From: a virus
Taxonomy: Duplodnaviria; Caudoviricetes
Reading direction: 5' to 3' (one strand)
IMG/VR virus record: IMGVR_UViG_3300028454_001166
Location: 1 to 64,000 of that record
Length of the DNA: 64,000 bases
Positions 8,900-50,170 of the stretch are shown here, piece after piece. Numbering within the stretch: position 1 is the first letter of the stretch; the number at the start of each line of letters is the position of its first letter. The notes beneath the pieces were generated by a model. The model saw nothing but the letters and a program-made list of their open reading frames with translations, searched no databases and was not told the DNA's origin. The translations under genes and the position numbers were made by a program.

Positions 8900-8923
8900 T
8901 AAGTTGCAAAAATGGAGGAACAC

Positions 8924-9163: not shown

Positions 9164-9166
9164 TAT

Positions 9167-9239: not shown

Positions 9240-9244
9240 TCAAA

Positions 9245-33629: not shown

Positions 33630-36485
33630 ATGGCGATGGACACGCGCGGGTATAAAAATCTCCTGCGGAAACAAACGGGAAAAGCTGTGCGTCCTGTCCG
33701 TTATGATGGGTATGTAAACCTCATCAACCGTTACGGGACCTCAAAAGATATAGACGAGCAGTACTTCTTTTCTCCGGAGCCGGATGTGCCGGATGATGAA
33801 CTGGAGCTGTTTTACGAAGGAAACGGGCTGTTCGCAAAGATCATCGATACCCCCGCTGAGGAAGCCGTGAAGCACGGCTTTGAGTTGGAAGATCTGAACG
33901 ACGATGAAATCAAAAACTTCTACGAATCCGCTCTGGATGAGCTGGATTGGGAAGAAGTGTGCATGACCTGCATTAAATGGGCGCGTCTTTATGGCGGGAG
34001 CCTCGCGGTCATGCTGATCAACGATGGCCGCGGGCTTGAAGAACCGCTCGATTGGGATTCTATCGAGTCCATCGACGATATTGTTGTCTACGACCGGTCG
34101 CTGATCGTTCCGGACCAGTCCAGCATCTATAAGTACGAGAAGGACAACCCGTTCGGCACAAGAGGCAGTCGCCTCGGAACACCCGAATGGTACGAGATAA
34201 ACAGCACAAACGGGAACTTCCGGGTTCACGACAGCCGGGTTCTCGCGTTCCGAAATGGCGTGCTTCCGCAGAGAGCAACACACCAGAACTACCAGCTCTG
34301 GGGCATTCCGGAATATGTGCGGATCAACCGAGCGATCCGAAATGCGGAGGTTGCGCACGAGAGCGCTCCGAAGATGCTCTCGAAGTCCGTCCAGCCCGTG
34401 TACAAGATGAAGAATCTGTCTGAGCTGCTGGCGACCACGGATGGCGAGGACAAGGTTCTGCGGAGGCTCCGTTTGATCGATATGGCGCGGAGCTTCCTGA
34501 ATTCCATTACCATCGACCAAGAAGGCGAAGACTACAGTTTCGCCTCCTTTGCGTTTAACGGAGTCGATCAGGTTATCACCTCCTCGTGCAACTGGCTTTC
34601 CGCGCTGACGTCCATTCCGCAGACTATCCTGTTTGGGCGGTCGCCCGCGGGCATGAATGCGACCGGAGACGCCGACCTCGAAAACTACTACAACTATGTG
34701 GAACGGATTCAGAAGCGGATGGTTCGGTCGAATCTCCGGTATCTGTTGTCCGTGATATTTACCGCGGGTCTGCATACCGGCGAGATCGATCATATTCCCG
34801 AGTTCAGCATCAAGTTCTCCCCGTTGTGGTCCATGACTGAATCCGAGCAGGTTGCGCTTGATTTGCAGAAAGCTCAGGTTGAGTCCGCGCGTGCGCAGAC
34901 GGCGTCCACATACATTCAAAATCAGGTTATCGATCCCGGCGAAGTCCGGAAGAGCCTCGCGGAATCGGACGAGTTCGACATCGAGACGATGCTGGACGAT
35001 TACACCGAGGAGGAACTTGAAGAGAACGCTCCAAAGGGCGAAGAGGGCGGGATGCCCGGTGAAGGTGGTTTGCCCGGTATGCCTCCCATGGGTGGTGCGC
35101 CGGACGGTGGCGGTATGCTTCCCATGGGTGGTGATCCCGGGTCGGGGCAGGAGGCCCCGGCACAGCCCGCACAGGCCGCTTCTGAGCCCGTTTCCGAGAG
35201 CGGGGAAGAAGGATACGCCCTGCAAGGAAACAGCCCTGAAACCGCCCCTGAAGCGACCAAGCTGCCTCAAGACCAGCTCGAGGAAGACCCGGATCATGAA
35301 GATGCGGAAAACATGGATGATGAGGACGAAGGGGCAGATAAAATCATATCTCGCCACGGCAAACCGGACTACGAGGCTCCGGTTCCCGCGGGAGAGGCTT
35401 CTTCATGGCTCGTCCAAGACCTCGACCCTCTCATGACGAACAACCCGGACACATCTTCTCCCGATTGGACCGATGATGAGATCAAACGCAGAATCCGTTC
35501 TGTGGGTGTTCTGGTAGTTGATCAGTTCGGGAAGATCCTCACTGGTGTGCGTAAGGGCGGAAGCGGTGAGAACTACGGACTGCTTGGCGGTCCCGGTGGC
35601 CACGTTGAGCCGGGGGAATCCCTCGAAGACGCGGCTATCCGTGAAACCTATGAGGAGTTCGGGATCGTCCCGAAAGATCTGATGTTCATTTCCCTCGGTC
35701 GCTACGAAGAGGACAGTGGGATGATCCCTGCCATCTTTCTTTGCACGGAGTGGGCCGGAAGGATCTACCCGGTAGACGGGGAGATGGAGAATATCCGGTT
35801 CCGGACTATAGACGACATCGAAACACACAAGTTGTTCGGGCCGTTCGAATCTTCTCTGGAAATACTCGAAAAAGAGTTGACTTCCGAGGATGAAGATGGT
35901 AATATAGTGATGGATGAATTCGTGGAGAGCGACCATCCCAGAGATGAAGACGGACGGTTTTCCAAGAATTCCACATCCGGTGCTAAGAGCGCTTCACCAA
36001 GCGGCGGGAAGAGCTCGACGAAATATGCTGAAATTGACGATGATGATGAAGAATATAATCCAGATCTTGATGGACCGGGGGAAGAGGCCAAACGAGAGAA
36101 AGAGCATGCAATAAGCTACTATAAAGCCGTTAGGCGTCGGCACGGTGATGTCAAGAAGATCGCAAGGAATACCGGATTTCCCGAGCAAGTGATCGATAGA
36201 ATTCGTGAACATGTTTTCATGAAGAAGCACGATCTGGGAGACGATAAAATGAAACGCTTTTCCCCGGATTATGATATGGCACAGTCATGGCAGCGGTTAG
36301 TGAAGGGAAAAAACATTCAACCCCATGACGTCACCCTTTTGAAGCATGAACAAAAAGAGTACGAGCTGATGGATTCGGGACTATCTCAGGATAAAGCCCA
36401 CGCGTTAGCGACCCGAGAATTTGATTATCAAGGAGAGGTGGAAAAATACAATGGTAAAAGTCAAAAACATAACAAAGACACCTGA
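33630..36485 (+). CDS. Portal protein (DUF1073-like) fused to a Nudix hydrolase and a C-terminal toxin-like domain
   Basis: WARLYGG, IPQTILFGRSPAGMNATGD.DLENYY; Nudix box 35598-35666 GHVEPGESLEDAAIRETYEEFG; HPRDEDGRF; C-terminal PDYDMAQSWQRL...HEQKE...AH. Confidence 0.88.
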   Translation: MAMDTRGYKNLLRKQTGKAVRPVRYDGYVNLINRYGTSKDIDEQYFFSPEPDVPDDELELFYEGNGLFAKIIDTPAEEAVKHGFELEDLNDDEIKNFYESALDELDWEEVCMTCIKWARLYGGSLAVMLINDGRGLEEPLDWDSIESIDDIVVYDRSLIVPDQSSIYKYEKDNPFGTRGSRLGTPEWYEINSTNGNFRVHDSRVLAFRNGVLPQRATHQNYQLWGIPEYVRINRAIRNAEVAHESAPKMLSKSVQPVYKMKNLSELLATTDGEDKVLRRLRLIDMARSFLNSITIDQEGEDYSFASFAFNGVDQVITSSCNWLSALTSIPQTILFGRSPAGMNATGDADLENYYNYVERIQKRMVRSNLRYLLSVIFTAGLHTGEIDHIPEFSIKFSPLWSMTESEQVALDLQKAQVESARAQTASTYIQNQVIDPGEVRKSLAESDEFDIETMLDDYTEEELEENAPKGEEGGMPGEGGLPGMPPMGGAPDGGGMLPMGGDPGSGQEAPAQPAQAASEPVSESGEEGYALQGNSPETAPEATKLPQDQLEEDPDHEDAENMDDEDEGADKIISRHGKPDYEAPVPAGEASSWLVQDLDPLMTNNPDTSSPDWTDDEIKRRIRSVGVLVVDQFGKILTGVRKGGSGENYGLLGGPGGHVEPGESLEDAAIRETYEEFGIVPKDLMFISLGRYEEDSGMIPAIFLCTEWAGRIYPVDGEMENIRFRTIDDIETHKLFGPFESSLEILEKELTSEDEDGNIVMDEFVESDHPRDEDGRFSKNSTSGAKSASPSGGKSSTKYAEIDDDDEEYNPDLDGPGEEAKREKEHAISYYKAVRRRHGDVKKIARNTGFPEQVIDRIREHVFMKKHDLGDDKMKRFSPDYDMAQSWQRLVKGKNIQPHDVTLLKHEQKEYELMDSGLSQDKAHALATREFDYQGEVEKYNGKSQKHNKDT
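35877..35905 (+). promoter_or_regulatory. Promoter embedded in portal CDS ahead of the toxin domain
   Basis: TTGACT-17-TAATAT with TG extension. Confidence 0.7.
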
Positions 36486-36687
36486 TTTCATTTCTGGGGA
36501 AGCGTATGTTGAAGACTGTCCTACGGCCATTAAGATTTCCGTTGATTCCGAGGGCGGCATTCGCGCGGACCCGCTTCCCGAAGGGTACGATTGGTGTAAA
36601 AAACATCTTCGGTATGCGATTGGGGTTCTCCGACAAGCGCGTAAAATGGAGGATCCTCCTACCGAACGAACGATAATGTGGTATTGA
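36451..36687 (+). CDS. Putative immunity protein for the portal C-terminal domain
   Basis: 78 aa, overlaps toxin 3' end, GAGGTG RBS, followed by terminator. Confidence 0.65.
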   Translation: MVKVKNITKTPDFISGEAYVEDCPTAIKISVDSEGGIRADPLPEGYDWCKKHLRYAIGVLRQARKMEDPPTERTIMWY

Positions 36688-36706
36688 TATAGCAGATCTG
36701 ACAATG

Positions 36707-36734
36707 AAAAAAGGACGGGGGCCCGTCCTTTTTT
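36707..36734. terminator. Bidirectional terminator
   Basis: AAAAAAGGACGGG-GG-CCCGTCCTTTTTT. Confidence 0.8.
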
Positions 36735-36753
36735 CATGCCTTCGGAGGACATT

Positions 36754-37341
36754 GTGGGAAAAGTCGATGAATATATAAAGCGGAGGAGAATCCGGCTTCT
36801 TTCCCGGAACGGAGAAACACCTTCATTCTCAGATCGAGTAACGGCTTTCAAGGCCCGTCGCGCAGCTCGGCTCGACGTACGGAATAAAGAACTTGAAATG
36901 CTGAAAAATGGGTTGACTTTCTCCAAATATAATGGTAACATTGCAATGGATGAATTCGTGGAAGGCGACCATCCACGGGATGAGAACGGGCAATTCGCTA
37001 AAGCGAATAGCTCCGAGGCTTCAAGCGAGTCGGGAGCTGAAACGGTAAAACCGCAACCCACGACCCCATCTGCAAAAGAGATCCGGTCCCGTTTGATCGG
37101 GCAAAAAACGCAGGACGGGCAAACGGTAAAGTCGGTGAGCGACCACGCAGTACAAAGGGTTCAGGAACGGAAGATCGGTTTTGATACAATCGAGAATTTG
37201 TTCCAATCCGGTAACGTTCGGCCCGGACACACACCGAACACGATTTGCTATGAAACCGATAAGCACAGAGTTGTTTTCGACAAAAACAACGGCAAAATAG
37301 TAACCGTGATGCACCGGGGCAATAGAGGAGGCAAGAAATAA
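36754..37341 (+). CDS. Leader-bearing protein with C-terminal DUF4258/BECR-like putative RNase toxin
   Basis: GGAGG then GTG; two RRxxRL leaders; HPRDENGQF; SDHAVQRVQERKI...VVFDKNNGKIVTV. Confidence 0.7.
   Translation: MGKVDEYIKRRRIRLLSRNGETPSFSDRVTAFKARRAARLDVRNKELEMLKNGLTFSKYNGNIAMDEFVEGDHPRDENGQFAKANSSEASSESGAETVKPQPTTPSAKEIRSRLIGQKTQDGQTVKSVSDHAVQRVQERKIGFDTIENLFQSGNVRPGHTPNTICYETDKHRVVFDKNNGKIVTVMHRGNRGGKK
36913..36941 (+). promoter_or_regulatory. Promoter embedded in CDS ahead of the toxin domain
   Basis: TTGACT-17-TAACAT with TG extension. Confidence 0.65.
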
Positions 37342-37601
37342 TGGACACGAAGGGCTTTCTTGATCTGCTGAATCAAGAACAAAATGATTTCATCCTCGAT
37401 GAGTTTTCCATGACGCAGGATCAGCTCCTCGGCCTTTCCGATGAAGGCCTCGACGAGCTCTACGAAGAGCTGGCAGACATTGAGGTTGAGGAGACGATGA
37501 AAGCCGAAGAAACGGGCGCAGCTCTTTCGGACAGAGGCCGGATTGCTTCTGAGATCGTCACTGTTTGGGGCAACGCCTACGCCGAGATAGACGAGGAGTG
37601 A
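37341..37601 (+). CDS. Acidic putative immunity protein
   Basis: TAATG coupling to a basic toxin; very acidic 86 aa; terminator follows. Confidence 0.7.
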   Translation: MDTKGFLDLLNQEQNDFILDEFSMTQDQLLGLSDEGLDELYEELADIEVEETMKAEETGAALSDRGRIASEIVTVWGNAYAEIDEE

Positions 37602-37621
37602 ACCCGAAAACAAAATACCTG

Positions 37622-37645
37622 AAGGACGGATCCCCGTCCTTTTTT
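37622..37645 (+). terminator. Intrinsic terminator
   Basis: AAGGACGG-ATCC-CCGTCCTT-TTTT, same stem as 36707. Confidence 0.8.
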
Positions 37646-37695
37646 CGTGCCCATGTTTGAGAGCCGCGTAGGGGCTTATATGGAGGCGTTTTAAC

Positions 37696-38652
37696 GTGAA
37701 CGAAAAGATACCCGCCCAACTGAAAAACGCGACTGACAAAGCCCCCACGAAGGTCAGAAGCCGCGTCCGGGCAAAAGGGACGCTCCTGTACCCGGATTCA
37801 TCCGAACGGGAGTACGCTTCGCTGGCTTTGAAGCACGCCCGGATGTACGGCGACCTGTTAAAAGAATACCTGCCGGAGATCGAAACGATTCTCCGTGAAA
37901 CCGCGAGGACGGATTCCAAGGATTACCACGATGATGCGAAAATCCTTGATTTCTCCGAGCGGTTTTCTCGTACCATCCGGAAGATGGAAAAAGAGCTGGC
38001 CGAAAAGCTGGACGATTTCGACACGGAGTACTTCATCAAGAAGGTGGCGAAACGGGCAAACGGGAGCAACACCCGCCAGTGGTTGCAGCTGATAAAGAAA
38101 ACCTACGGGATCGATCTTGACGGTCACTACTACAACAAAGGAACGTGGGCGGATATGATCGACAGATGGGCCGCGGAAAACGTCGGCTATGTGAAGTCAA
38201 TTCCGCAGGATTCTCTGGCTACACTTCGCCAGATCGTCCAGAACGGGTACTACGACGGCTGGGGGGTCATTAAGACCCGGAACGAGATCATGAAGGCTTT
38301 CGGGGTTTCCAAGAAAAAAGCAAAGATGCTGGCCGCGGATCAAATGGGTTCCTTGTGTGCGCAAATAACCCGGAAGAAGCAAACGGACGCCGGGTGCAAA
38401 CGGTATCGATGGAAAGCCCGAAACGACAACCGTGTTCGGGATGCGCACAGGCAGTACAACGGGAAAATCTTCTCATGGGACAACCCGCCGCCCGCGTGGT
38501 ACATGACCAAGACGAAGGGGAAGGTCTTCACCGGGAGGCATTGTCATCCCGGCGAGGATTACTGTTGCCGGTGCATAGCGATACCGATCTTCGATTCGGA
38601 CACGCTTCAACTGCCCGTGAAGAGCGGATACGAGGAGACCGGACAAACGTGA
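37696..38652 (+). CDS. Head morphogenesis protein (MuF / SPP1 gp7 family), short form
   Basis: A.DQMG...YRW...DNRVRDAH...GKIFSWD.PP...HPGEDYCCRC. Confidence 0.92.
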   Translation: MNEKIPAQLKNATDKAPTKVRSRVRAKGTLLYPDSSEREYASLALKHARMYGDLLKEYLPEIETILRETARTDSKDYHDDAKILDFSERFSRTIRKMEKELAEKLDDFDTEYFIKKVAKRANGSNTRQWLQLIKKTYGIDLDGHYYNKGTWADMIDRWAAENVGYVKSIPQDSLATLRQIVQNGYYDGWGVIKTRNEIMKAFGVSKKKAKMLAADQMGSLCAQITRKKQTDAGCKRYRWKARNDNRVRDAHRQYNGKIFSWDNPPPAWYMTKTKGKVFTGRHCHPGEDYCCRCIAIPIFDSDTLQLPVKSGYEETGQT

Positions 38653-38669
38653 GGAAGGGAGCAATTGGA

Positions 38670-39515
38670 ATGAATAAAGTACGCGCTTTCCAAGGGCGTC
38701 GATATAAGCGGCTCCTCGCAAGGATGGATGCCAACACTGACAAAGGAAAATGGATCACAACCGAAAACAATCACAAAGTCCATCTGAACGAGAACGGACA
38801 ACCAGATATGGGCAACCCTCACGTGATCGCTGCGATGGGTGGTAGCGAGTCCTCAGTACAGGTAAGTGATCTCAGTAAGCGGGTTGAGGGACTTAAGAAG
38901 ATGAAAAAGACCGAACGGCAACAGGAGCTTGCGAGTATTCTCGGTGATATGCCGGTGGGTTCTCAGATTACAGTTAAGAACCCGGGGCTTCCTGATCAAG
39001 TCATAACGAAAAAGGACGCGGAAACCTTCGAGCTTAAGACCACGATGTTTGGTGCACCATCCGTTCACGATTCTTCACTCTTCGCATTGTCTCACGGTTT
39101 GTCTAATGATAAGAGCAATGCGTATTCGTTCGAAGGCTCCGGCACAATGCAATCTCAGGCGAAGGCGGAAAGTGGCGTTAATCCCAACGCTAAAACCCCC
39201 TCCAATGTATCATCTTCAAGTTCAAGTGGGGGTGGGTCTACAGTGCCCCCCGATGCAGATGCTCTTGCTAAGACAAAGGCTCAAAAAGCCGCTGAAAAAG
39301 CTAAGACTGCGGCCATGCTCAAAAAAGCACAAGCCGCGGTAGCTAAAAAAGAAAAGATCTCACAGATTGATAAGGAAATCGAGCAGCTGGAACACGAGAT
39401 GTATAAGGCCCAGCATTACGGGAATACCGAGATCGGGGATTGGGATCTGTCCCACGAACTTGAAATGAAAATCCATAATCTTGAGGAGCAGAAAAAGAAG
39501 CTCACAGGGAAGTAA
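38670..39515 (+). CDS. Leader-bearing putative capsid-cargo protein with C-terminal coiled coil
   Basis: MNKVRAFQGRRYKRLLARMD..GKWITT..HLNENGQPDMGNP. Confidence 0.8.
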   Translation: MNKVRAFQGRRYKRLLARMDANTDKGKWITTENNHKVHLNENGQPDMGNPHVIAAMGGSESSVQVSDLSKRVEGLKKMKKTERQQELASILGDMPVGSQITVKNPGLPDQVITKKDAETFELKTTMFGAPSVHDSSLFALSHGLSNDKSNAYSFEGSGTMQSQAKAESGVNPNAKTPSNVSSSSSSGGGSTVPPDADALAKTKAQKAAEKAKTAAMLKKAQAAVAKKEKISQIDKEIEQLEHEMYKAQHYGNTEIGDWDLSHELEMKIHNLEEQKKKLTGK

Positions 39516-39537
39516 AAGTTAAAGCGAGGCATTTTTG

Positions 39538-42500
39538 ATGAATAAAACGGATGCGTACCGTAACCGCCGGTATAAGCGGCTTCTCGCAAGAATGGATGAA
39601 GTGGATGGCCATTTCGACGACGAGGGGCATTGGGTCACAACCCACGAAACGAAACGGCACATACACATAAACGAGAACGGGGTTCCTGATAAGGGCAACC
39701 CCTATATTATTGCCAAGATGACCGGGACGAAACCGAAACTCAGCGGCGAATACCGGAAAAAATCGCTGCAGGAGAGTTTCGGTAAAGGGAATACCGGTAA
39801 GGCAGTGCATTCGTTGAAGAGCCTTCCCGAAGGATCGACGATCAAGATGGCAAACGGAACGGAGTACACAAAGACCGGAAGCGGCTTTGTCAGTTCCAAG
39901 AGTAAAACGGGTGGTAAACAGACCCCGCAAGCTCTGGCGAAAATCCTTGATGGTCATACGAAGGCCGGTAAGAACTTCGAGGTCAATCCTTCCGACATTG
40001 GCGGGGCTGTCGAAGCGGGGAAAAACACGGGAGCCCCGAAGCCCGGACAGGGTGCTGAGTCCGAGGCTCCGAGTGCTTCTACGTCAGAATCGGTGCCGGA
40101 AACCGCATCAGCATCGTCCCCGGAGATCGATGCGCTTAACACGGTAATCGATCAATGGGGCGCGGGCAATCAGGTCCCCGCAGTAACCACATTGCAAGCT
40201 CTCACGGGTTTAGAAGACGGGACGAAAATCTTAGTTGACGGGTTTACCTTTGAAAAGCAGTCTGAAATCAGCGCGCTTGGGGCAGGGAAGGTCACTTCCT
40301 TTAAGAACACGGACACGGGCGAGGTCTTTAGTAAGGGTACGTTTAAGGCAATCCTGAAAAGCTATGCAGAGGAAGGTCAGCACGATATAGAGGTGCAAGC
40401 GCCCGGTCAATCGACGCCCGCCTCGGCTGAGGCCGCACCTGCTCCGGATGAGGTGGCCCCGGTTGAAACGGCTTCGACTTCTCCTGAAGTAACCAAATTC
40501 AACGACATTCTTTCAGGGTGGGCTGGCCACTACAGCGATGGGACACTTACAGAGGACGATATTGCCGCCGCAAATGCTTTGAAGGATGGCACGATTATCT
40601 CCGTTAACGGAAAAGATACCTACAAAAAGGTTACCGAACACTCCATGTACGGCGACTATCCGTGGTTTGAAAACTTAGAAACCGGGAAATGGTCGAATGT
40701 ACCCGCGCTGAAAAAAATCGTGGGCGGGGATGACGTACAGGCTGTACAGGTGAAAGATCCCGCAAATGATACAACAGTTTCTGCGCCAGCTTCTGAACAA
40801 GAGCCTACGCCGACGTCGAGTGCCGAGCCTTCTGCCGAGCAACCGAGTTCTTCTTCCGGTGGTAAGACGATGAAGGACCTGACAGAGTCCTTGAAAAAGT
40901 ATCCCCCGACCATGGAGGGGGCGAATAAGTTCTGGAATGAAGTCAATAGCACCTTCGATAACGCCCCTGACGGAACTGAGATAACCTTTCCTGATGAAGA
41001 CGATGGAAAATGGATCAAGGAAACCCACGGGAGCCTGACGCAATGGGTAAACCTCGCTTCCGGCGATACGATGGATAACAGTGAGATGTCGGCGGCTTTC
41101 TTGGATTCCGACTTTGGCAAGGATCTCGATAACATTTCTGCCGGAATAACCTATAAAGAACCTACCGGCGCGGGGACGCCGGGTTCAAGCTCGAGCGGTT
41201 CAAGTGGTTTAGCCTCGCAGGATTATTCGGGCCAAAAAGAAGCCCTTAGCGATCTGATCAAAAACGTGCCCGATGCGAGCATTGCCGCCTATGAAACGGT
41301 GTTGGATGAATTCCCAGAGGGCACCATCATCAAGGTTGGCGGAAAAACGTATGAAAAAATTCCGTCCGGGGATTGGGGTGATCCAGATACAGGGTTGCCG
41401 CTTGGCGAGTCTTGGGATGTGGGCTACGAGCTGAAGCACTATAACCCTCAACACACCTTAGACATTTCGATACCCGGAGAAAACACCGCCGCGTCTTCCA
41501 CCGGCAATGCGAATACACCTACTACGAGTTCTGACCCGGCGCAGTATTCGGCGTCTCTTTCAGGGGTAAAAAGCGCTGTAGATAAACTGAAACAAGGGAA
41601 ATTCGTCCATCCGGCAGAGTTCAAAAAGGCGTGTAAGTCAATGAAAGACGGCGATGGAATCGTCACGAACGGAAAAACCTATATCAAGGGTACAGATTCG
41701 TCCGGAAATCCGGTGTTCCACCCTTCTGATTCCCCACAGCACACTTACAGTTCTACCGGCATGGTGGACATCATGGCATACCAGATCGGTTTGCAAAAAG
41801 CCGGTCTCTCAAACGGGGTTTCGTTCAAATCCGGATCGGATCAATCCAGCTCAGGAAGTACAGCCGGTGCTTCACCCAGCACGGCAGCTCCCACGGCAAC
41901 ACCGAGCGTGGCCGCAAAAGACACGCAGAAATCAATCAAAAATGCTAAGACCAAAGCCGCCGTCGCTTCGGCTCTGGACGCGCTTCCCGTGGGAACGAAG
42001 ATCCACATGAAGAACCAAGGGGAAACCGTGTTCACAAAAACGGAGCACGGTTTCTCAAAAGAGTCTAAGTTCTGGGGCGGGACCATTCACACCCTTACCG
42101 ATGACGTGGTGAAATATGTTCACGGGAAGAATAAATACGCCGCGCCCTTTGCTATCGAAGATACTTCTGGCGGAACAACCGATTTCTCGGACGGTTCAAG
42201 CTATAAAGCCCCGGCGCATTCGTCTACCGCGTCTTTGCAAAGCCAGTCTTCCTCCTCCGCCTCGTCCGCTTCATCTTCCGCATCAAGCCCGAAACCGAGT
42301 GCTTGGAACGGGCTAAAAGCAAAAGTCCAACATGCCGCCGAAGCGTTCACCCAAGCCCGGAAGAACGCGGCCCATTGGGATAAAGGGGGCGGAATGGCAA
42401 CCGATAAACTGCTGAGACCGGTTACAGGAGCAGTATGGAAAAAACTAACTGAGGGGCAGAAGAAGAGTCTGGTTGCCTATACCGGGAGCGCTTATGCGAG

Positions 42501-43023
42501 CATAAATGACGCATTGAGAAACGGAACCGGTAAACGAGCTGCAGACATAAACAACATGACAACGGCTATCGATCAGTGCGAAGCGCCCACCGATATATGG
42601 CTTCAGAGAGGATGTTCGACATACGCATTGAGTAAGCTGTTCAACACCGATACGATGACCCTTGAAAAAGCGCGTTCAAAAGGATCCCAAGCTATTCTTG
42701 ACCTTTTGTCCACCTCGGCAAACTACGGTCAGGATAAGGGTTTCATGTCATGCGGGTCTTCGAAAGGGAAGGGCTTTTCCTCTAACGATGTGATTTTGAA
42801 CGTGTACTGTCCGAAAGGCACGAAGATGATGTATGCGGAACCGTTCTCCCACTATGGCGCGACAAGTGCCGGAGCTACGTGGAACGGCTCGTCTGGTACA
42901 ACTCATGTTTCAGGCGAACACGAAACAATCCTGCAAAGGGGGACAATGCTCCGTCCCACAAAGGTCACGGTGTCTAACGGTAAGATATACGTGGATGTAG
43001 ACGTAATCGGTCAAAACTACTAA
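39538..43023 (+). CDS. Large leader-bearing protein with 7 internal repeats and a C-terminal VIP2/Alt-like ADP-ribosyltransferase
   Basis: Leader as above; YTGSAYASINDALR, WLQRG, KGFMSCGS, VYCPKGTK, GEHETILQRGT (R-S-ExE). Confidence 0.88.
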   Translation: MNKTDAYRNRRYKRLLARMDEVDGHFDDEGHWVTTHETKRHIHINENGVPDKGNPYIIAKMTGTKPKLSGEYRKKSLQESFGKGNTGKAVHSLKSLPEGSTIKMANGTEYTKTGSGFVSSKSKTGGKQTPQALAKILDGHTKAGKNFEVNPSDIGGAVEAGKNTGAPKPGQGAESEAPSASTSESVPETASASSPEIDALNTVIDQWGAGNQVPAVTTLQALTGLEDGTKILVDGFTFEKQSEISALGAGKVTSFKNTDTGEVFSKGTFKAILKSYAEEGQHDIEVQAPGQSTPASAEAAPAPDEVAPVETASTSPEVTKFNDILSGWAGHYSDGTLTEDDIAAANALKDGTIISVNGKDTYKKVTEHSMYGDYPWFENLETGKWSNVPALKKIVGGDDVQAVQVKDPANDTTVSAPASEQEPTPTSSAEPSAEQPSSSSGGKTMKDLTESLKKYPPTMEGANKFWNEVNSTFDNAPDGTEITFPDEDDGKWIKETHGSLTQWVNLASGDTMDNSEMSAAFLDSDFGKDLDNISAGITYKEPTGAGTPGSSSSGSSGLASQDYSGQKEALSDLIKNVPDASIAAYETVLDEFPEGTIIKVGGKTYEKIPSGDWGDPDTGLPLGESWDVGYELKHYNPQHTLDISIPGENTAASSTGNANTPTTSSDPAQYSASLSGVKSAVDKLKQGKFVHPAEFKKACKSMKDGDGIVTNGKTYIKGTDSSGNPVFHPSDSPQHTYSSTGMVDIMAYQIGLQKAGLSNGVSFKSGSDQSSSGSTAGASPSTAAPTATPSVAAKDTQKSIKNAKTKAAVASALDALPVGTKIHMKNQGETVFTKTEHGFSKESKFWGGTIHTLTDDVVKYVHGKNKYAAPFAIEDTSGGTTDFSDGSSYKAPAHSSTASLQSQSSSSASSASSSASSPKPSAWNGLKAKVQHAAEAFTQARKNAAHWDKGGGMATDKLLRPVTGAVWKKLTEGQKKSLVAYTGSAYASINDALRNGTGKRAADINNMTTAIDQCEAPTDIWLQRGCSTYALSKLFNTDTMTLEKARSKGSQAILDLLSTSANYGQDKGFMSCGSSKGKGFSSNDVILNVYCPKGTKMMYAEPFSHYGATSAGATWNGSSGTTHVSGEHETILQRGTMLRPTKVTVSNGKIYVDVDVIGQNY

Positions 43024-43050
43024 CCTCGAAATTAAACCGGTTATTACTGC

Positions 43051-43079
43051 TTGACTTTTTTCATGCTTTATGGTAATAT
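43051..43079 (+). promoter_or_regulatory. Promoter for the antidote genes
   Basis: TTGACT-17-TAATAT with TG extension. Confidence 0.8.
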
Positions 43080-43110
43080 GGGTTTACCTAATATGAGGGG
43101 GTAACATTTC

Positions 43111-43365
43111 ATGGCGAAAGAAGGAAAGATGAAGCCTCGTGATTGGGATGAGGGATTCGGTGATAACGCTGAACACGGCGCGGAAGAAACGCCTTGCACC
43201 GATTGCGTTTTTCGTCGAATTGTCACAAGCGCAGATGGTAGGGTGATAGATACCGGAAAAGGATCTACCTGCAAGGCCTATCCCGAGCTCAAACCGCTCG
43301 AGGTGATGATGTATGGGGCCGAGTGCCCGAAATATCAGAAGGATAAACACGAAAAGAACCTCTGA
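43111..43365 (+). CDS. Small Cys-rich protein, possible immunity/partner of the ART
   Basis: CTDC...CKAYP.LKP...CPKY; between ART and ARH. Confidence 0.7.
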   Translation: MAKEGKMKPRDWDEGFGDNAEHGAEETPCTDCVFRRIVTSADGRVIDTGKGSTCKAYPELKPLEVMMYGAECPKYQKDKHEKNL

Positions 43366-43410
43366 GGCAAAGAGGATACCGAAAATGAACCCAAACAGGG
43401 AGGCAAACGC

Positions 43411-44331
43411 ATGATAGGAGCCATCATCGGTGACATCGTCGGCTCGGTCTACGAGTTCGACAATCATCGATCAAAGATTTTTCCGCTTTTTGATTCTCGC
43501 TGTGCGCTGACAGACGACAGCATAATGACGCTGGCCATCGCAAGAGCGCTCACGATCTACGGGCAGCAGGGGACGTATGAAAACCTGCAATCTGAGACGA
43601 TCCGGCAGATGCAGAGGGTCGGTCGATGCTACCCCGATTGCGGTTGGGGCGGGCGTTTCGGAAGGTGGATCTTCTCAGACGATCCGAAGCCATACAACAG
43701 CTTCGGGAATGGCGCGGCTATGCGGGTCAGCGCGATTGTCGCCGCGGCTCCAAACCTCGAAACGGCGAAGCTGTGGACGAAGCTGGTAACCGAGATTTCG
43801 CACAACCACCCGGAAGGGATCAAAGGCGCACTTGCGACGGTTGAGCTTGCGTGGATAGCAAAAGAGGCCAGAAAACGCACGAATCCAAAATGCAAAGATC
43901 GCATTTTCAAAGCCGCTTTGAAATACTACCCGGAAAAAGACTTCGCCGGAGATTTCAACCTTGATGCGATCCGCCCCAAATACCGATTCAACGAAACCTG
44001 CCAAGAGACGGTTCCGCAAGCCATCGAAGCGTTCCTTGAATCGAGAGATTTTGAGGACGCTATTCGAAATGCGATCTCAATCGGCGGGGACAGCGACACG
44101 TTAGCCGCAATTACAGGGACTATCGCCGAGGCCTTCTACGGGGTGAAGCAGGAGCATAAAGCAAAAGCGCTCAAATACTTCGACAGCCTCCAATACGGAA
44201 TCTACAGTGAGTTTTCAGCTATGTACAACGATCTGCCCGTATTCGGAGAGCTGTCCGGAGAAATCGCATTCCGAACAACCGAAGACGGATCCATCGGCGG
44301 GATTTCTACGATGGGAGACGTCATTGGGTAA
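43411..44331 (+). CDS. ADP-ribosylglycohydrolase (DraG/ARH family)
   Basis: GAIIGDIVGS.YEF, TDDS, SFGNGAAMR, SHNHPEG, GGDSDTLAAI. Confidence 0.93.
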   Translation: MIGAIIGDIVGSVYEFDNHRSKIFPLFDSRCALTDDSIMTLAIARALTIYGQQGTYENLQSETIRQMQRVGRCYPDCGWGGRFGRWIFSDDPKPYNSFGNGAAMRVSAIVAAAPNLETAKLWTKLVTEISHNHPEGIKGALATVELAWIAKEARKRTNPKCKDRIFKAALKYYPEKDFAGDFNLDAIRPKYRFNETCQETVPQAIEAFLESRDFEDAIRNAISIGGDSDTLAAITGTIAEAFYGVKQEHKAKALKYFDSLQYGIYSEFSAMYNDLPVFGELSGEIAFRTTEDGSIGGISTMGDVIG

Positions 44332-44350
44332 TCCCGCGAACTGAATACCG

Positions 44351-44379
44351 AAGACGCAGAAATGCGTCTTTTCTTATTT
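44351..44379 (+). terminator. Intrinsic terminator
   Basis: AAGACGCA-GAAA-TGCGTCTT-TTCTTATTT. Confidence 0.75.
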
Positions 44380-44402
44380 CCCCGTTGAAAGGAGGGGTCG
44401 GC

Positions 44403-46070
44403 ATAAAAGGCAACAACATAAGTCGTTTCAAACAGCGACGCGCTGAACGTCTAATACAAAGAGCGTTTAATGCGGATGCCCGTTTTGACGAGGACAAGGG
44501 AAAATGGGTGACGACCCACGAAAAGAAGCGTCGAATCCACATAAACGAAAACGGAATCCCGGATAAAGGGAACCCCTTTGTCATAGCCAAGATGACCGGG
44601 TCTAAGCCCAAGGTCAGCACTGGCTACAAAAAGAAGAATCTTCACGATCTTCTTGTAAAGGGCAAATCCGACAAAGCTGTAAAAGCTCTGAAAGCCTTGG
44701 AAGAAGGTTCCACTATCACGCTGGAAAACGGCACACAGTACACGAAGACGGGGAGCGGCTTTGTCAGCTCGAAGGGAAAAACTGGCGGCAAACAAACCCC
44801 GCAAGCCATAGCGAAGATCCTCCATGGTCACTCCGGAGGCGGGAAGGACTTTACGGTTGGTGATCCCAAACCCGATGCAGTTCCCGAGGCAAAAGCGCCT
44901 AAAACGTCAACCGTCCCAACCTACCCGAAGACATACAGCAAGGGTCAGCTTGGCGCGTCCCATAGTTCTCATATGGGAGACGATCCGGTAGACATTCCGA
45001 AAGGTCCGCCTAAAACCTATAAATCCGACTCCGGCCACGAATTCGTGGACGCGGGTAATATTCTATCAAGCGTCAAATCAACCGATACGACGAAAGACAT
45101 CATCGAGAAGCAGGGATTCAGCGGTTTGCCTCGACGGGTATCAAAAGAGGAATTTCAAAAGATTGCAAAACAGAGTGGTTTCGTTTCGAAGCGAACATAT
45201 AGCGCGGCCTCTCAGGAGCTCGCAGACGAATATCGAAAACAGCTCTACGAAGGGGACTTTTTCGTGGACTGCACCGTAGGCGGTGCACAATACGGGCAAG
45301 GAATGTATTGTGCCGCCGATTACACCGGCAACGGATACAACGCGGGCATCGACGAAGAGATGAAGCACTACCAAAAATTGAATGTCGCGCGGCAAGCAGA
45401 TAACGCTTTCATCTTAGGGGCTTCAACCGAAGATCTGAACAAGGCCATAGACGAGTGTAAGGCCGCGGGTAAGTACAGCTGGAACGGAATGGGTTACAAG
45501 CACATGACCCCTGCCGAGCATGAGGCGTTTAAGAAGTTTGTAACGCATCAGAAGCTCAGCCCAAAAGAAGAAGAGGCCATGGCAAAGCACGGCGGTTTTT
45601 CGGATGTTCAGTTCGTGCTGTCCACTGATGTCGGGTGGAGCAACTATGGAACGGTTTCCGTAGGAAGCACTAAGAGCGCTACCAAGAACAAGTTCCTCTC
45701 GACATATAAGGGGTACAAAAAGACCGAAGTGGTCACGTTGGACCCGAGCGCGAAGATTATTAGTTTCAATGCTCTAAAGGCGAAATACAAGGCCTATAAA
45801 GGTACGAAACCGAAAGATCTGGGTGCCTTCGCCGCGGCTATGGGCTACGATGCGATCAACGCCTACGGCCATGGTAAATCCGGGTCCTACACCGTTATTC
45901 TCAACCGGACAAAATGTGTATTTATGGATCGGCCTATCAATGGCGACTCGGTAGATGAGCCGAAGGAATCCCGTATCAAGTTCATCCCCGGCAAGCATGG
46001 CCGGTTCCACGCATATCGGGACGGTCAATATCTGGGGTGGGTGGACACCTACGTCGGCGGTCAGAACTGA
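44403..46070 (+). CDS. Leader-bearing protein with C-terminal PARP-like/ART-PolyVal-like domain; ATA start
   Basis: AAAGGAGG 7 nt before ATA; ~130-aa N-terminus similar to the 39538 protein; YGQGMYCA...GYDAI...YTVILNR. Confidence 0.7.
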   Translation: MKGNNISRFKQRRAERLIQRAFNADARFDEDKGKWVTTHEKKRRIHINENGIPDKGNPFVIAKMTGSKPKVSTGYKKKNLHDLLVKGKSDKAVKALKALEEGSTITLENGTQYTKTGSGFVSSKGKTGGKQTPQAIAKILHGHSGGGKDFTVGDPKPDAVPEAKAPKTSTVPTYPKTYSKGQLGASHSSHMGDDPVDIPKGPPKTYKSDSGHEFVDAGNILSSVKSTDTTKDIIEKQGFSGLPRRVSKEEFQKIAKQSGFVSKRTYSAASQELADEYRKQLYEGDFFVDCTVGGAQYGQGMYCAADYTGNGYNAGIDEEMKHYQKLNVARQADNAFILGASTEDLNKAIDECKAAGKYSWNGMGYKHMTPAEHEAFKKFVTHQKLSPKEEEAMAKHGGFSDVQFVLSTDVGWSNYGTVSVGSTKSATKNKFLSTYKGYKKTEVVTLDPSAKIISFNALKAKYKAYKGTKPKDLGAFAAAMGYDAINAYGHGKSGSYTVILNRTKCVFMDRPINGDSVDEPKESRIKFIPGKHGRFHAYRDGQYLGWVDTYVGGQN

Positions 46071-46148
46071 TAGAATCGCCTCTTCCGATGAAAAATAAAA
46101 TGCGCGGAAACGCGCTTTTTTAGTTCCTCACGATAGGAGGCGTTTCCG

Positions 46149-46316
46149 TTGAAAGAATACATTCGTGTTTTCATTCGTTTCAAAGAAGGGAGAACCGTGT
46201 GCATCTGCATGAGGGACAACCCGAAATGCAAGAAGCACTGCATCCCAGAACTGGTAGAGCGGGACAAGATGAGAGATTGGCAAGAGGCCTTCAAGGTCAA
46301 TAAATACGGAAAGTAA
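46149..46316 (+). CDS. Small Cys-rich protein (55 aa)
   Basis: AGGAGG RBS, TTG start, CIC...C..HC. Confidence 0.6.
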   Translation: MKEYIRVFIRFKEGRTVCICMRDNPKCKKHCIPELVERDKMRDWQEAFKVNKYGK

Positions 46317-46419
46317 AGCGGGGTATATCGCATATGAAACGCGTCGTAAAATCGGTTCACGATCCGCCCATCGAAAGCTATTATTTTGACGGCAAAGAAA
46401 GAGAAGGGAGGTGGTACGG

Positions 46420-46749
46420 ATGCCGGAGAAAGAAATGAGCGTCATTGAAACCATCTGCCAGCAGATGATTAAGTCTGCGGGGGATGTCATCGCGCTCGAG
46501 CAGGTTATATCTCGGCTGGAAGACCACAATAACGATAAGGTGTTGGAGCTGTTTGAACACCTGCAAATCTCCAATCTGGAAGCCCTGCAAACCTTGACAG
46601 TCGCCTTAACGGGTGAAATGCTGGAATCCCGGAAGACCGAAAACGATGATTCGGATGATGGCGGCGTCTTTGCGCCGGGGGAGCTCGATTGGAAAAAGAA
46701 AGCCGAGGTGATCGGCCACGGTGAAACGGAGGAAGAAGCCGATGAATAA
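46420..46749 (+). CDS. Hypothetical head-module protein
   Basis: GGAGG RBS; overlaps start of the DUF2213 gene. Confidence 0.7.
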   Translation: MPEKEMSVIETICQQMIKSAGDVIALEQVISRLEDHNNDKVLELFEHLQISNLEALQTLTVALTGEMLESRKTENDDSDDGGVFAPGELDWKKKAEVIGHGETEEEADE

Positions 46750-48583
46750 GACCATGCCTAAGCTGGTTCACGTCACACGGCTTGACAGTTTCCCCGTAAC
46801 CCGTGCAACGTACACGGATGAAGGTTATCTGTCCGACCGACCGATTCTGACGTCAACCGGAATCTTCGAGTACAAAAACAAAGATGGCTCGATCAGACGG
46901 GAGCTGAGGCTCCCGGAGGAAGTTTTTGACCCTGAAAGTCTTGAATCCTATAAAGGGAAGCCCATCGTGATAACACACGATGCCGGGCTTATTAACCGTG
47001 ACAATGTTCAGGAAAATCAGATAGGGACGATCCTCAGCGCCGGTGAGCGCGACGGGGATGATGTTCGGGCTGACATCATGATTCATGATACAAAGGCCCT
47101 GAAAAACTGTCGATTCAAGGAACTGTCGCTCGGTTACAACCTCGACCTTGAAGAGGAACCGGGAGAATGGGAAGGGCAGAAATATGATGCCATCCAGCGG
47201 AACATCCGCGTGAACCATCTTGCCGTTGTCAGGGAGGCAAGGGCGGGAGATCAGGCGCGGCTGAACATAGATAGCCGTTCCGATAACACAATCTTAACAG
47301 GAGGACATAGGACTATGGCCAAGAAGAAGACCCGCCGTAAATACAACAACGACGGCATCCTCAGCCCTGAACAGCTGCAGGAAGCAATCGCAAAGTATAA
47401 GGCGGAACAGGCGGCGCTTGCCGCTGAAAATCAGGACGAAGATCCTGATGAAGAGGCCGAGGAACTCGCAAAGACCGAGGTTGTAAACCCCGAGGCCGAT
47501 GTGCAGAAGAATGAGCTGAACAAGGATACGGACAAGCCGGTTCCTGCTCCGCAGAATACCGCGCCGCAGGTGCTCCCCCCGAAGAAGCCCGTGGCTCCGA
47601 GCATCCCGCTCCCGAGTCAGGACAGGCCCATTGAGGAGAAGCTCGACGCGGTGAAGCACAGACGCGATCTCCGCGACGAGAAGGGTGACCCCAAGGACCT
47701 TAATGAGGCCATGGAAAGCATCGCTGAATACGACGAGGAGCACGATTATTATCGTGACATCATCGACACCCTTCTCGCTGAACGTGACTTCGAAAAGGGT
47801 AAGAAGGCCGACTCTGCGCAGGAGCCCATCCCCGACACCGAGACCGCTGAAATCGGTGACAAGGGCAAGGAGAAAGACGAGGACTGTGTGGACAACAAGC
47901 TCGACTCCGAAGACGCTGACACCCCCTTCACCGATGAAGAAGAGGTAAAGGAAGACGACGAGGAAGACACCGACCCGTTTGGTGACGAGGACTTCGCTGA
48001 CGAAGATCTCACCGAAAACGAGGGTGAGGAAGAGGATCCGGCTTTTGCCGATTCTGACCTCGGCGACCCGGACTCCGCTGATCCCGATAACGAGGACGAC
48101 GATGACGAAGAGGCACTTCCCGACTACGATCTCACCGATCCCGACATCGACGATGCAGATGAGGAGGAGGAATCCTACCCGCGTCTGAATCAGGATTCTA
48201 TCGACCGGGCTGTTCGGAAAGAAGTGCAAAGACGGCTCGCCATCGCCAAGGTAGGCCAGCGGCTCAACATGGACGGTCTGGAAACCATGAGCCTCCGCAA
48301 AGCGAAGCGCATGGTCATTAAGAAGGTTTATCCTTCTGTCCGGCTCGACGGTAAGAGTGACGCCTACATCAACGGTATGTACAACTGCTGCGTAAAAGAG
48401 CTGAAGAAACACCCCCGGAAGGATACCGCCTACCAGAAGCGGCAGATGTTCAATAAGGTGTTCAACAAGGACTCTCAGGACTTCGATAACACCGATTCCG
48501 CGGCAACCGCGCGTGACAAGATGATCGAACGGCAGCTGGATCGCAAGCCGGAACGTCATAGCGTTCGTGCGGAAAAGAAATAA
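46742..48583 (+). CDS. DUF2213 putative prohead protease with acidic scaffold region
   Basis: GIFEY, ELRLPEEVF..SL.S..GKPI..H, ELSLGY, YDAIQRNIRVNHLAVV..ARAG. Confidence 0.9.
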   Translation: MNKTMPKLVHVTRLDSFPVTRATYTDEGYLSDRPILTSTGIFEYKNKDGSIRRELRLPEEVFDPESLESYKGKPIVITHDAGLINRDNVQENQIGTILSAGERDGDDVRADIMIHDTKALKNCRFKELSLGYNLDLEEEPGEWEGQKYDAIQRNIRVNHLAVVREARAGDQARLNIDSRSDNTILTGGHRTMAKKKTRRKYNNDGILSPEQLQEAIAKYKAEQAALAAENQDEDPDEEAEELAKTEVVNPEADVQKNELNKDTDKPVPAPQNTAPQVLPPKKPVAPSIPLPSQDRPIEEKLDAVKHRRDLRDEKGDPKDLNEAMESIAEYDEEHDYYRDIIDTLLAERDFEKGKKADSAQEPIPDTETAEIGDKGKEKDEDCVDNKLDSEDADTPFTDEEEVKEDDEEDTDPFGDEDFADEDLTENEGEEEDPAFADSDLGDPDSADPDNEDDDDEEALPDYDLTDPDIDDADEEEESYPRLNQDSIDRAVRKEVQRRLAIAKVGQRLNMDGLETMSLRKAKRMVIKKVYPSVRLDGKSDAYINGMYNCCVKELKKHPRKDTAYQKRQMFNKVFNKDSQDFDNTDSAATARDKMIERQLDRKPERHSVRAEKK

Positions 48584-49135: not shown

Positions 49136-50170
49136 ATGGCAAACAAGCACAGATCCTATGAGAAGGACGAGGCGAGAGCTCTTCGGGACTCTGGTATTGC
49201 GAAAGCGATCATCGCCTCTGAAGGCACTCGTTTCGACAGCGCTGAGGAAGCATCTGTTTTCTTCGCCCGTGAGCTGGATTTCGTCAAGAGCCAGTCCTAC
49301 GACGTTGAATACCCCGAACTGACCGCGCTGAACATCTTCCCGATCAGCACCGAAGCTGATGAGGGCGCGGAAACCATCACCTACTACACCTACGACAAGA
49401 AGGGCGTCGCCAAGATCATCGACAGCTATTCTACGGACCTTCCGAGAGCTGACGTGGATGGTACCCCCTCTGTCGCCAAGATCAAGTCTCTCGGTGCTTC
49501 CTACGGTTACTCCGCTCAGGAAATGAGAGCGTCCCGTCTCGCCGGTAAGGGGCTGGATGCCCGGAAAGCCGAGTCCGCAAGATGGGCTATCGACTCCGCG
49601 AACAACAAGATCGCGTGGGCCGGTGATACCGCTTCCGGTCTGATGGGCGTTCTTTCTGCGGGTCAGTCTATCCCGCTGTACACCATCCTCGCTGATGGTT
49701 CCGGTAAGACCAAGTGGACCGAAAAGGACCCCGACGCCATCCTTGACGACATCAACGGCATGGCGAAGCAGGTGGCCAGAACCACGAAGAACGTGGAACG
49801 CCCCGATACCCTCTGCGTCCCTGCCGATGTGTATATGCACATCGCAACCAAGAGAATCCCGCAGACCGCTACCTCCGTGCTGAACTACCTCCTCGAGAAC
49901 GCTCCGTACATCAAGGAGATCGTCAGCGCGGCTGAGCTGGATGCCGATTCCGTTGAGACCAACCCCTACGCCGCGGCTTCCGGTGGTCAGGGCGTCGCCT
50001 TCCTGTTCAAGAAGGACAAGAAGAAGCTCTCCCTCGAGAACCCGATGCCCTTCAACCAGTACACCGCCCAGACCAGAAATCTGGAAACCATCATCCCCTG
50101 CGAAGCCAGAACTGCGGGCGTCATCGTGTACTACCCCCTGTCCTGCCTGATCGCTATCGGCGTTTCCTAA
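49136..50170 (+). CDS. Major capsid protein (DUF2184 family)
   Basis: FFARELD, DLPRADV, YGYSAQE, GVIVYYPL; strong codon bias. Confidence 0.92.
   Translation: MANKHRSYEKDEARALRDSGIAKAIIASEGTRFDSAEEASVFFARELDFVKSQSYDVEYPELTALNIFPISTEADEGAETITYYTYDKKGVAKIIDSYSTDLPRADVDGTPSVAKIKSLGASYGYSAQEMRASRLAGKGLDARKAESARWAIDSANNKIAWAGDTASGLMGVLSAGQSIPLYTILADGSGKTKWTEKDPDAILDDINGMAKQVARTTKNVERPDTLCVPADVYMHIATKRIPQTATSVLNYLLENAPYIKEIVSAAELDADSVETNPYAAASGGQGVAFLFKKDKKKLSLENPMPFNQYTAQTRNLETIIPCEARTAGVIVYYPLSCLIAIGVS

Follow-up and report, generated by a model that had tools for sequence, protein, structure and literature searches.

We analysed a 64,000-nucleotide (nt) stretch of phage DNA (Duplodnaviria; Caudoviricetes; positions 1 to 64,000 of IMG/VR record IMGVR_UViG_3300028454_001166), hereafter the window, in whose head module a block of variable genes separates the portal gene from the gene for a DUF2213 prohead protease. 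This block appears to be a hypervariable cargo compartment of the head module, holding polymorphic effectors that are not fused to the minor head protein MuF. We consider it likely, with a probability of about 0.6, that four stand-alone cargo proteins, encoded by open reading frames (ORFs) 2, 5, 6 and 9, and the C-terminal extension of the portal protein are packaged and then ejected with the DNA into the newly infected cell, with partner proteins protecting the producer. The reading builds on features that were observed directly, namely the domain content of these genes, a shared motif family, its confinement to the head module, the swapping of cargo domains between carriers and the conserved pairing of toxin and partner genes; from these we infer that the cargo is packaged, cleaved, ejected and toxic, and what each of the two leader parts does. 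A first-pass annotation had described five cargo-like units around a short MuF gene lacking a toxin, and all were recovered as plus-strand ORFs at the places it gave. The head module (31.2-50.2 kb, plus strand, as are all features below unless noted) encodes, in order, a probable small terminase, the large terminase (Terminase_6N/6C), the portal (PF06381), the variable block, the DUF2213 prohead protease, a cement protein and the major capsid protein (PF09950).

A leader family of the head module

ORF5 (281 amino acids (aa), 38670..39515), ORF6 (1162 aa, 39535..43023) and ORF9 (561 aa when begun at a TTG codon at 44385; 44385..46070) start with related leaders, that of ORF6 spanning nt 39535-39759, in which an Arg-rich segment, [FY]xxRRxxRLxxR, precedes the motif W[IV]TT..H[IL]NENG.PD.GNP. 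The three leaders share 27 invariant columns, and the Arg-rich leader with W[IV]TT or HPRD motifs that the first-pass annotation had seen as common to the cargo genes was found as claimed. A profile of 76 positions built from the three window leaders and searched against 1.84 billion cluster representatives matched 231 proteins at E≤1e-3, of which 132 also passed E≤1e-10. The 231 matches are clusters at no more than 50% identity, and the leader residues W, T, G, D, G and N were invariant across the 83 to 111 members aligned; the leader is a real sequence family. It sits mostly at residues 1-70 of proteins that are 55-2042 aa long, and the tails behind it differ widely, with 52 sequence clusters, 38 of them singletons, among 122 proteins. 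Pfam analysis of 150 leader proteins identified ADPrib_exo_Tox in 22, an ATLF-type peptidase in 3, a portal domain in 2, and Zeta toxin, Gln deamidase and DnaJ in one each; a MuF domain was identified in 0/150.

The leader itself has no model in Pfam, PHROGs or NCBIfam. Its AlphaFold2 (AF2) model (pLDDT 85) begins with a long helix, after which come a sheet of three strands, a short helix and the repeat domain described below; VIA-align returned only mixed matches (Z ≤5.4), all on the repeat domain, and no fold was assigned. A search of the leader profile against PDB sequences returned nothing meaningful. We considered a Tat or Sec signal as an explanation for the RR motif and rejected it because no hydrophobic segment lies behind the RR.

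Genomic context was read for 14 IMG/VR and 8 metagenome loci carrying the leader, whose portal and capsid proteins are 57-67% and 55-74% identical, respectively, to those of the window. The leader lies between the portal-NUDIX gene and the DUF2213 protease, cement and capsid genes in 14/14 of the IMG/VR loci and 4/8 of the metagenome loci, the other four being short or covering the module only in part, and leader genes occur in tandem, up to five of them in one locus (L102; numbers with the prefix L denote related loci). The N-terminal Arg-helix motif is present in 24/109 ORFs of the portal-to-protease interval versus 1/124 ORFs outside it (Fisher p = 4e-8, a value that overstates independence because the loci are related). 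The proposal that a leader profile would prove confined to head loci with variable C-termini held wherever context was readable (52 tail clusters), all within one phage lineage.

Cargo domains, their partners and their carriers

The portal protein (951 aa, 33630..36485; Pfam PF06381, Phage_portal_3, E 4e-72) consists of a core (residues 1-480) followed by a low-complexity Gly/Pro-rich linker, a NUDIX domain (residues 621-732, nt 35490-35825; PF00293, E 3e-15, 57 bits), the HPRD junction motif MDEFVE.DHPRD (GNIVMDEFVESDHPRDEDGRF; residues 761-772, with MDEFVE at nt 35910 and HPRD at nt 35934) and a C-terminal tip of 157 aa (residues 795-951, nt 36012-36485). The Nudix box at residue 657 is intact (G-x5-E-x7-R-E-x2-E-E-x-G), as expected of a NUDIX hydrolase. 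The tip is all-alpha and carries the HExxE..H motif that had been noticed in the portal extension; the motif gains weight from the invariance of H112, E113, E116 and H130 in 17 homologues. Among 19 longer tip homologues (40-50% identity), 11 are fused to MuF and 6 to Phage_min_cap2, and an Atlas structure search with the tip (TM 0.77-0.81) gave the same fusion picture, together with WXG100-type secreted toxins. PDB sequence searches with the tip and with a tip profile returned nothing meaningful, and a relaxed Pfam scan of the tip, the small ORFs, the repeats and the coiled coil gave no match. Only the portal combines at least two effector-type domains in one virion-associated polypeptide (portal, NUDIX and tip) in the way of polyvalent proteins; the stand-alone cargo ORFs carry one effector domain apiece. 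An 88-aa ORF overlaps the portal stop codon (36421..36687) and could be considered a partner of the tip by position, an unsupported candidacy for what is an open frame only, with no family match and no homologue in the related loci.

ORF2 (201 aa, 36736..37341) comprises two Arg-rich helices, an HPRD motif (GNIAMDEFVEGDHPRDENGQF, nt 36946-37005) nearly identical to the portal copy on alignment, a Ser-rich linker and, at residues 135-192, a DUF4258/BECR-type RNase domain, as first suggested (Pfam PF14076, 25.1 bits against a gathering cut-off of 25). Further support for the DUF4258 call comes from the basic nature of the domain (pI 9.9) and from its conserved acidic downstream partner. This is ORF3 (86 aa, pI 4.05, 37341..37601), whose start overlaps the ORF2 stop, which has a GGAGG ribosome-binding site and which is the candidate immunity protein of the DUF4258 domain; its homologues lie directly 3' of a DUF4258 domain in six related loci (L119-L121, L128, L136 and L152). 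A word-indexed search with the ORF2 leader returned one close homologue. We also observed that two copies of a 30-nt direct repeat, each a hairpin with a T-run, bracket ORF2 and ORF3 exactly, like a cassette: the first (36711..36740) follows the 88-aa ORF and the second (37622..37651), terminator-like and 87% identical to the first, follows ORF3.

ORF6 carries, behind its leader, seven tandem domains of ~100 aa (..LP[ED]G[ST]xI...G..Y.K..; window positions 39715-42175) separated by Ser/Thr/Ala/Pro linkers, and ends in an ADP-ribosyltransferase (ART) of the R-S-ExE type (residues 968-1153, nt 42436-42993; Pfam PF03496, ADPrib_exo_Tox, E 2e-17, 63.9 bits versus a cut-off of 23.4). The catalytic motifs of Alt/VIP2-type arginine ARTs are in place (R1026, S1072-x-S and E1128-x-E1130), and the first-pass assignment of an R-S-E ART is thereby confirmed. 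ORF6 also matches PHROG 16625 (Bxa ART) at E 1e-21 and, weakly, PHROG 802 (Alt-like) at E 4e-7. The repeat domain, which the first-pass annotation had not noticed and which has no family match, occurs once in ORF5 and once in ORF9. Two candidate immunity genes follow the ART. ORF7 (84 aa, 43111..43365) is Cys-rich (CxxC...C...C) and, standing in the position of Bsi, may be an immunity protein of the binding type; its homologues adjoin ARTs in L001, L089 and L104, and small CxxC ORFs lie between the ART and the ADP-ribosylglycohydrolase (ARH) genes of L127, L137 and L140. The ARH (306 aa, 43411..44331; Pfam PF03747, E 3e-29), in the position of BAH, may be an enzymatic immunity protein, and a terminator-like hairpin (44350-44371) follows it. 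Adjacency of ART and ARH was seen in 10 related loci. The order ART (39535-43023), small ORF (43111-43365) and ARH (43411-44331) is that of Bxa, Bsi and BAH, and it recurs in relatives.

ORF9 consists of a leader, one repeat domain, a linker and a C-terminal domain of 370 aa (nt 44955-46070). Searches with this domain returned 818 homologues. Of the best 120, the majority form the C-terminal end of MuF proteins (31 of the 51 aligned), and others are joined to NUDIX/portal fragments or Phage_min_cap2. No Pfam match was obtained in the 51 homologues, Foldseek found no match in PDB, and a PDB sequence search returned nothing meaningful. With the AF2 model of the domain (pLDDT 80), a VIA exhaustive alignment gave almost exclusively ART folds as top matches (diphtheria toxin, SAIP, MbcT, cholix, PARPs, ParT and RES), all weak (Z 2.5-4.6), and an Atlas lead for the domain scored 0.80. 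An ART-like fold with a helical insert, possibly a split one, is a plausible reading of this model; the PARP-like ART that had been proposed for ORF9 is without Pfam support and finds only weak, if consistent, ART-fold matches (Z ≤4.6). With regard to the start of the gene, there is no ATG near the leader, a perfect AAAGGAGG precedes a possible ATA start at 44403 by 7 nt, and the TTG at 44385 sits within this Shine-Dalgarno-like string; in ORF9 homologues gene callers choose later starts, by which the Arg helix is lost.

In ORF5 the leader (WITT..HLNENG.PD.GNP) and single repeat domain are followed by a Ser/Gly linker and by a coiled coil, which is Lys/Ala-rich and agrees with the C-terminus first described for this gene; no enzyme domain was found and there was no match in Pfam, PHROGs or NCBIfam. 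MuF itself (SPP1 gp7-type, 318 aa, 37696..38652; PF04233, E 6e-16, TIGR01641, PHROG 324) is short and has no C-terminal extension. Pfam identified no MuF domain in any of the four stand-alone cargo proteins, and MuF and toxin do not share a polypeptide here. The head module of this temperate phage does show the other hallmark of MuF toxins, a variable C-terminal toxin domain with a small ORF behind it (ART, DUF4258 and their partner ORFs).

The strongest indirect support for capsid loading comes from the swapping of carriers. In close relatives the portal gene continues for 1000-2000 codons, and the domains at its end are those that the window encodes as genes of their own. The portal polyprotein ends in DUF4258, followed by the ORF3 homologue, in L119-121, L128, L136 and L152; it ends in an ART, followed by a small CxxC ORF and an ARH, in L117, L126, L127, L137, L138, L140-143 and L151; and in L127 it ends in an ORF9-type domain. 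The C-termini of portal proteins face the capsid interior. SPP1 gp7 (MuF) binds the portal inside the head (PMC5576092). Since the same domains are fused to the portal C-terminus or to MuF, both inside the head, the stand-alone cargo proteins are probably located there as well.

Three types of motif occupy the same two slots, namely W[IV]TT..H[IL]NE.G.PD.GNP, DHPRD..G.F and, in relatives, DGGPGSGNFGH.G.PG..GGS. One slot is in portal polyproteins, directly after NUDIX (residues ~680-770) and again before each further domain; the other is in stand-alone cargo ORFs, 25-100 residues from the N-terminus and behind a basic helix. By analogy the WVTT, HPRD and GGPGSGNFGH motifs may be junction modules resembling pre-toxin domains, at whose boundaries cassettes are exchanged and cleavage probably takes place. 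Neither WVTT nor HPRD can be the address on its own, because both also occur inside portal fusions after NUDIX, where an address would be pointless, and the Arg helix is the likelier docking element. The earlier idea of toxins detached from MuF and carrying a shared addressing leader thus stands as far as the lack of MuF fusion and the reality of the leader family are concerned, but not with the WVTT/HPRD motifs as sole address. We noted the Gly-rich motif (DGGPGSGNFGH.G.PG..GGS.PG) in L117, L119, L137, L138 and L142, at every domain boundary of the giant portal polyproteins and also close to the N-terminus of cargo proteins encoded separately; in many homologues from databases it precedes the ORF9-type domain, and a literature search on this motif found nothing relevant. 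The constant parts bear signs of recombination: the two HPRD sites are linked by a DNA repeat of 98 nt and two leaders by one of 34 nt, the 30-nt hairpin repeats enclose ORF2 and ORF3, and in a relative (P0002) the start of the ORF5 leader is joined to the body of ORF6 as a hybrid.

Proposed delivery, alternative readings and known systems

Two routes into the procapsid can be envisaged. The NUDIX domain and HExxE..H tip would enter through fusion to the capsid-interior end of the portal, and the stand-alone proteins through a two-part N-terminal module, of which the Arg-rich amphipathic helix ([FY]xxRRxxRL) would dock, perhaps on the acidic scaffold part of the DUF2213 protease, and the interchangeable junction motif would be the place where cassettes recombine and where the prohead protease probably frees the cargo. 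The DUF4258 RNase, the arginine-type ART, the possible second ART-like domain and the NUDIX domain would then be ejected with the DNA into the newly infected cell, while ORF3 would shield the producing or lysogenic cell from the RNase and ORF7 together with ARH would shield it from the ART. The DUF2213 protease (46721..48583; Pfam PF09979, E 2e-34) is fused to a scaffold-like region and contains a ~180-residue stretch (residues 319-502) that is about 40-50% Asp/Glu. It is a plausible candidate for both the processing enzyme and the docking partner, the acidic stretch being a possible electrostatic partner of the Arg-rich leaders. We put forward only tentatively, with the odds against it, a more specific version in which the Arg helix and junction motif form a portable loading-and-release code of the Mu-like/DUF2213 head: the helix would dock the passenger on the acidic scaffold-protease, the motif would be the protease cut site, and effectors would be shuffled as genes or as portal beads, with some relatives perhaps adding a route by mimicry of the capsid N-arm (DSVFFAGELD..YE..YP).

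Large cargo proteins of relatives (1200-1460 aa) start with a helix followed by DSVFFAGELD..(5-8 residues)..YE..YP, which copies an N-terminal segment of the capsid protein, SVFFARELD..SYDVEYPE. The cargo loci concerned are L091:7436-11791, L092:8201-11803, L094:5683-10068 and L096:9626-10114, and the corresponding window sites are 46411-46749 (ORF11) and 49136-50170. A hidden Markov model of the capsid segment matches the large cargo proteins at E 2e-4 to 5e-3 (in a small database). Mimicry of the capsid N-arm may be a second way into the shell.

Several results weigh against the interpretation as packaged effectors. All loci with readable context belong to one phage lineage, and confinement to the head module could reflect shared ancestry. 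Most of 43 relatives fetched by their protease have no WVTT leader; tblastn found no match to the leader in 50,697 sequenced phage records and none was found among solved structures, and neither the leader profile, searched in 300 other genomes sampled from the same order, nor a pattern scan of species-representative genomes gave a match. The leader is accordingly lineage-specific and dispensable, in view of its absence from most protease-fetched relatives, the 300 genomes and the 50,697 phages, and its role is read from context alone because neither sequenced phages nor solved structures offer a match. Pfam recognises no domain in about 100 of the 111 shorter leader proteins and ORF5 has only a coiled coil, so not all leader proteins need be toxins. 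The DUF4258 assignment of ORF2 is marginal, its score lying at the threshold. Finally, the most closely related ART to have been characterised, Bxa, reportedly acts once cells have released it and not by injection (PMC11699363).

The behaviour of Bxa would suit polymorphic toxins or host-acting factors that are made late, freed at lysis or exported, and act externally on competitors or on the animal host, the leader being a module for folding, solubility or release. The match of the ORF6 ART to the Bxa PHROG (E 1e-21), the same layout of ART, small ORF and ARH, and the description of Bxa as released from cells all agree with such proteins, which would need partner genes as well, and the route by which MuF toxins are delivered is still unproven (PMC5576092). 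We nevertheless regard external action as rather unlikely, given that the leader has no signal-peptide or Tat-like hydrophobic region, that the same cargo domains are covalently attached to portal, MuF and min_cap2, all in the head interior, and that, wherever context is readable, the leader family is confined to the interval from portal to protease. The leader proteins might instead be mainly structural or assembly components (internal core, scaffold-like, DNA-condensing or decoration proteins), with enzymes that act late in the producing cell and small neighbours that are ordinary head genes. The coiled coil of ORF5, the resemblance of the seven ORF6 repeats to spacers or binding modules, the many family members with no known enzyme domain, the DNA-binding potential of Arg-rich helices and the finding that ORF10 and ORF11 (described below) are core genes would all suit this account, yet the gene content between portal and protease ranges from none to >13 kb among close relatives, which is unexpected for essential structural parts, and toxin-type domains (ART, DUF4258, Zeta, Gln deamidase and ATLF) with conserved toxin-partner pairs point to effectors; we judge it improbable. 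The paralogues ORF6 and ORF9 share ~130 N-terminal residues and DNA-level repeats are present, as would be seen if the shared motifs were functionless products of recent duplication in one prophage and the array a chance accumulation of morons. This explanation we give almost no credence, as it is already contradicted by the breadth of the family, in which the motif is conserved over 231 clusters (≤50% identity) with invariant W, T, G, D, G and N and unrelated tails.

Taken as packaged effectors, the cargo proteins can be compared with several known systems. In phage T4 an N-terminal tag of ~10 residues carries non-structural proteins, including an ART, into the prohead; the gp21 protease removes this tag, and ejection of the proteins accompanies that of the DNA. 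The mode proposed here is alike, and ORF6 is weakly Alt-like by its PHROG match (E 4e-7), although the present module is ~60 residues long, the protease is of the DUF2213 type, cleavage is predicted only and the tags have no sequence relation. T4 Alt is a head-packaged protein (PMC5512222, PMC5576092). More generally, PMC5512222, PMC9503650, PMC5576092 and PMC3482391 contain predictions of head-packaged effectors fused to MuF or portal, of ART and Nudix genes among head genes, and of MuF toxins with immunity genes. MuF polymorphic toxins (Jamet et al. 2017, PMC5576092; Zhang et al. 2012, PMC3482391) resemble the present array in their site in temperate head modules, their constant N-terminus, their variable C-terminal toxin and their small downstream partner, and in other phages the ORF9 domain and the portal tip each occur as a C-terminal extension of MuF. 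The array differs in that the window MuF is short and the constant part is a ~60-aa leader with no match in Pfam, PHROGs or NCBIfam.

Polyvalent proteins and head-fused enzymes of NAD/ADP-ribose (Iyer et al. 2017, PMC5512222; 2022, PMC9503650) comprise ART, Nudix and BECR RNase domains on portal or MuF or among terminase and portal genes and are predicted to undergo packaging and injection; the portal-NUDIX-tip protein fits this description, whereas most effectors here are separate genes with a dedicated common leader. Bxa of a Bacteroides stercoris prophage is neutralised by Bsi through binding and by BAH through reversal (PMC11699363), and ORF6, ORF7 and ARH are similarly an ExE-type ART, a small ORF and an ADP-ribosylglycohydrolase, with ORF7 likened to Bsi by position. 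In contrast, the N-terminus of Bxa is MuF, that of ORF6 is a leader plus seven repeats, and the host phyla differ. Pre-toxin domains such as PT-VENN of CdiA (PMC3482391) are likewise short conserved modules that precede a variable toxin, form a recombination boundary and are proposed as processing sites, but they have no sequence relation to the present motifs and belong to secretion systems, not to a phage head. In the portions of PMC5512222, PMC9503650, PMC5576092 and PMC3482391 available, a MuF-independent leader family, the equivalence of the three motifs and the alternation between portal bead and separate gene appear to be undescribed.

If the proteins are packaged, this phage lineage delivers changeable enzymes (an RNase, ADP-ribosyltransferases and a Nudix hydrolase) without fusion to MuF or portal, by means of a short common tag and interchangeable junctions. 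If true, this would provide a testable rule for spotting effectors that uncultured phages of the gut and rumen inject, an equivalent in another head type, occurring in nature, of the T4 capsid targeting sequence, and a possible handle for loading proteins into phage heads, and it would extend the Bxa-type arrangement of ART, small ORF and ARH to phages of Clostridia.

Expression signals, neighbouring genes and phage background

Terminator-like hairpins follow the 88-aa ORF (36711), ORF3 (37622), ARH (44350) and ORF9 (46102). Promoter-like sites are not enriched (9 versus 10.4 ± 3.3 in shuffled sequences), and of three similar sites only one is intergenic, a sigma-70-like site (TTGACT, 17 nt, TAATAT, with TG; 43051..43079) upstream of ORF7 and ARH; the sites at 35877 and 36913 are in conserved coding DNA just before MDEFVE. 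Internal promoters that yield transcripts of the immunity genes alone are conceivable but gain no support from these sites. The first-pass annotation had described antidote-like genes, equipped with promoter and terminator, behind three of the cargo units. The pairings of DUF4258 with ORF3 and of ART with ORF7 and ARH survive, recurring in 6 and 10 loci, as do the terminator-like hairpins; the promoters are at chance level, the 88-aa ORF is not conserved, and ORF10 and ORF11 are core genes. We noted that the two coding sites (35877-35912 and 36913-36948) are of the extended -10 type (TTGACT, 17 nt, TAATAT or TAACAT, TG) and end 4 nt before the ATG of MDEFVE, and that in L104 TGATACAAT stands 4 nt before its MDEW. 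Such sites could be a coding coincidence, or could mark an internal and possibly leaderless start for the part comprising HPRD and toxin.

ORF10 (55 aa, Cys-rich, 46149..46316) was found by tblastn directly after MuF in about 30 loci and is a conserved core gene of the head module, and ORF11 (112 aa, acidic, 46411..46749) is a conserved gene directly upstream of the protease with a degenerate copy of the capsid N-arm-like motif. Both were considered as antidotes of ORF9 and rejected, since in relatives they adjoin MuF and the protease as part of the core. Because simple relatives run MuF, ORF10, ORF11 and protease, the block from ORF5 to ORF9 (38670-46070) is an insertion and ORF10 and ORF11 belong to the core.

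Megablast of the region against the 50,697 phage records gave no match. Genes for tail sheath, tape measure and baseplate lie downstream of the head module (52.9-63 kb), replication genes lie upstream, and a large serine recombinase (Resolvase domain, 856-aa frame, window 1-2571, minus strand) is probably the prophage integrase. The element is, from this gene content, a temperate myophage, as the serine recombinase and the tail sheath, tape measure and baseplate genes indicate. It lies within a contig of >300 kb that belongs to a 4.3-Mb genome. One flanking gene has its nearest relatives in Oscillospiraceae-like Clostridia, and we place the prophage host approximately among gut-type Clostridia (Oscillospiraceae-like), the approximation arising because the phage may have brought this gene with it. 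A cluster in the phage region, at window positions 7937-9241, consists of five tRNA genes (Thr, Ser, Asn, Met and Met); behind it, at 10006-10764, is a stretch of low GC content (39%) that holds a GIY-YIG/HNH homing endonuclease gene.

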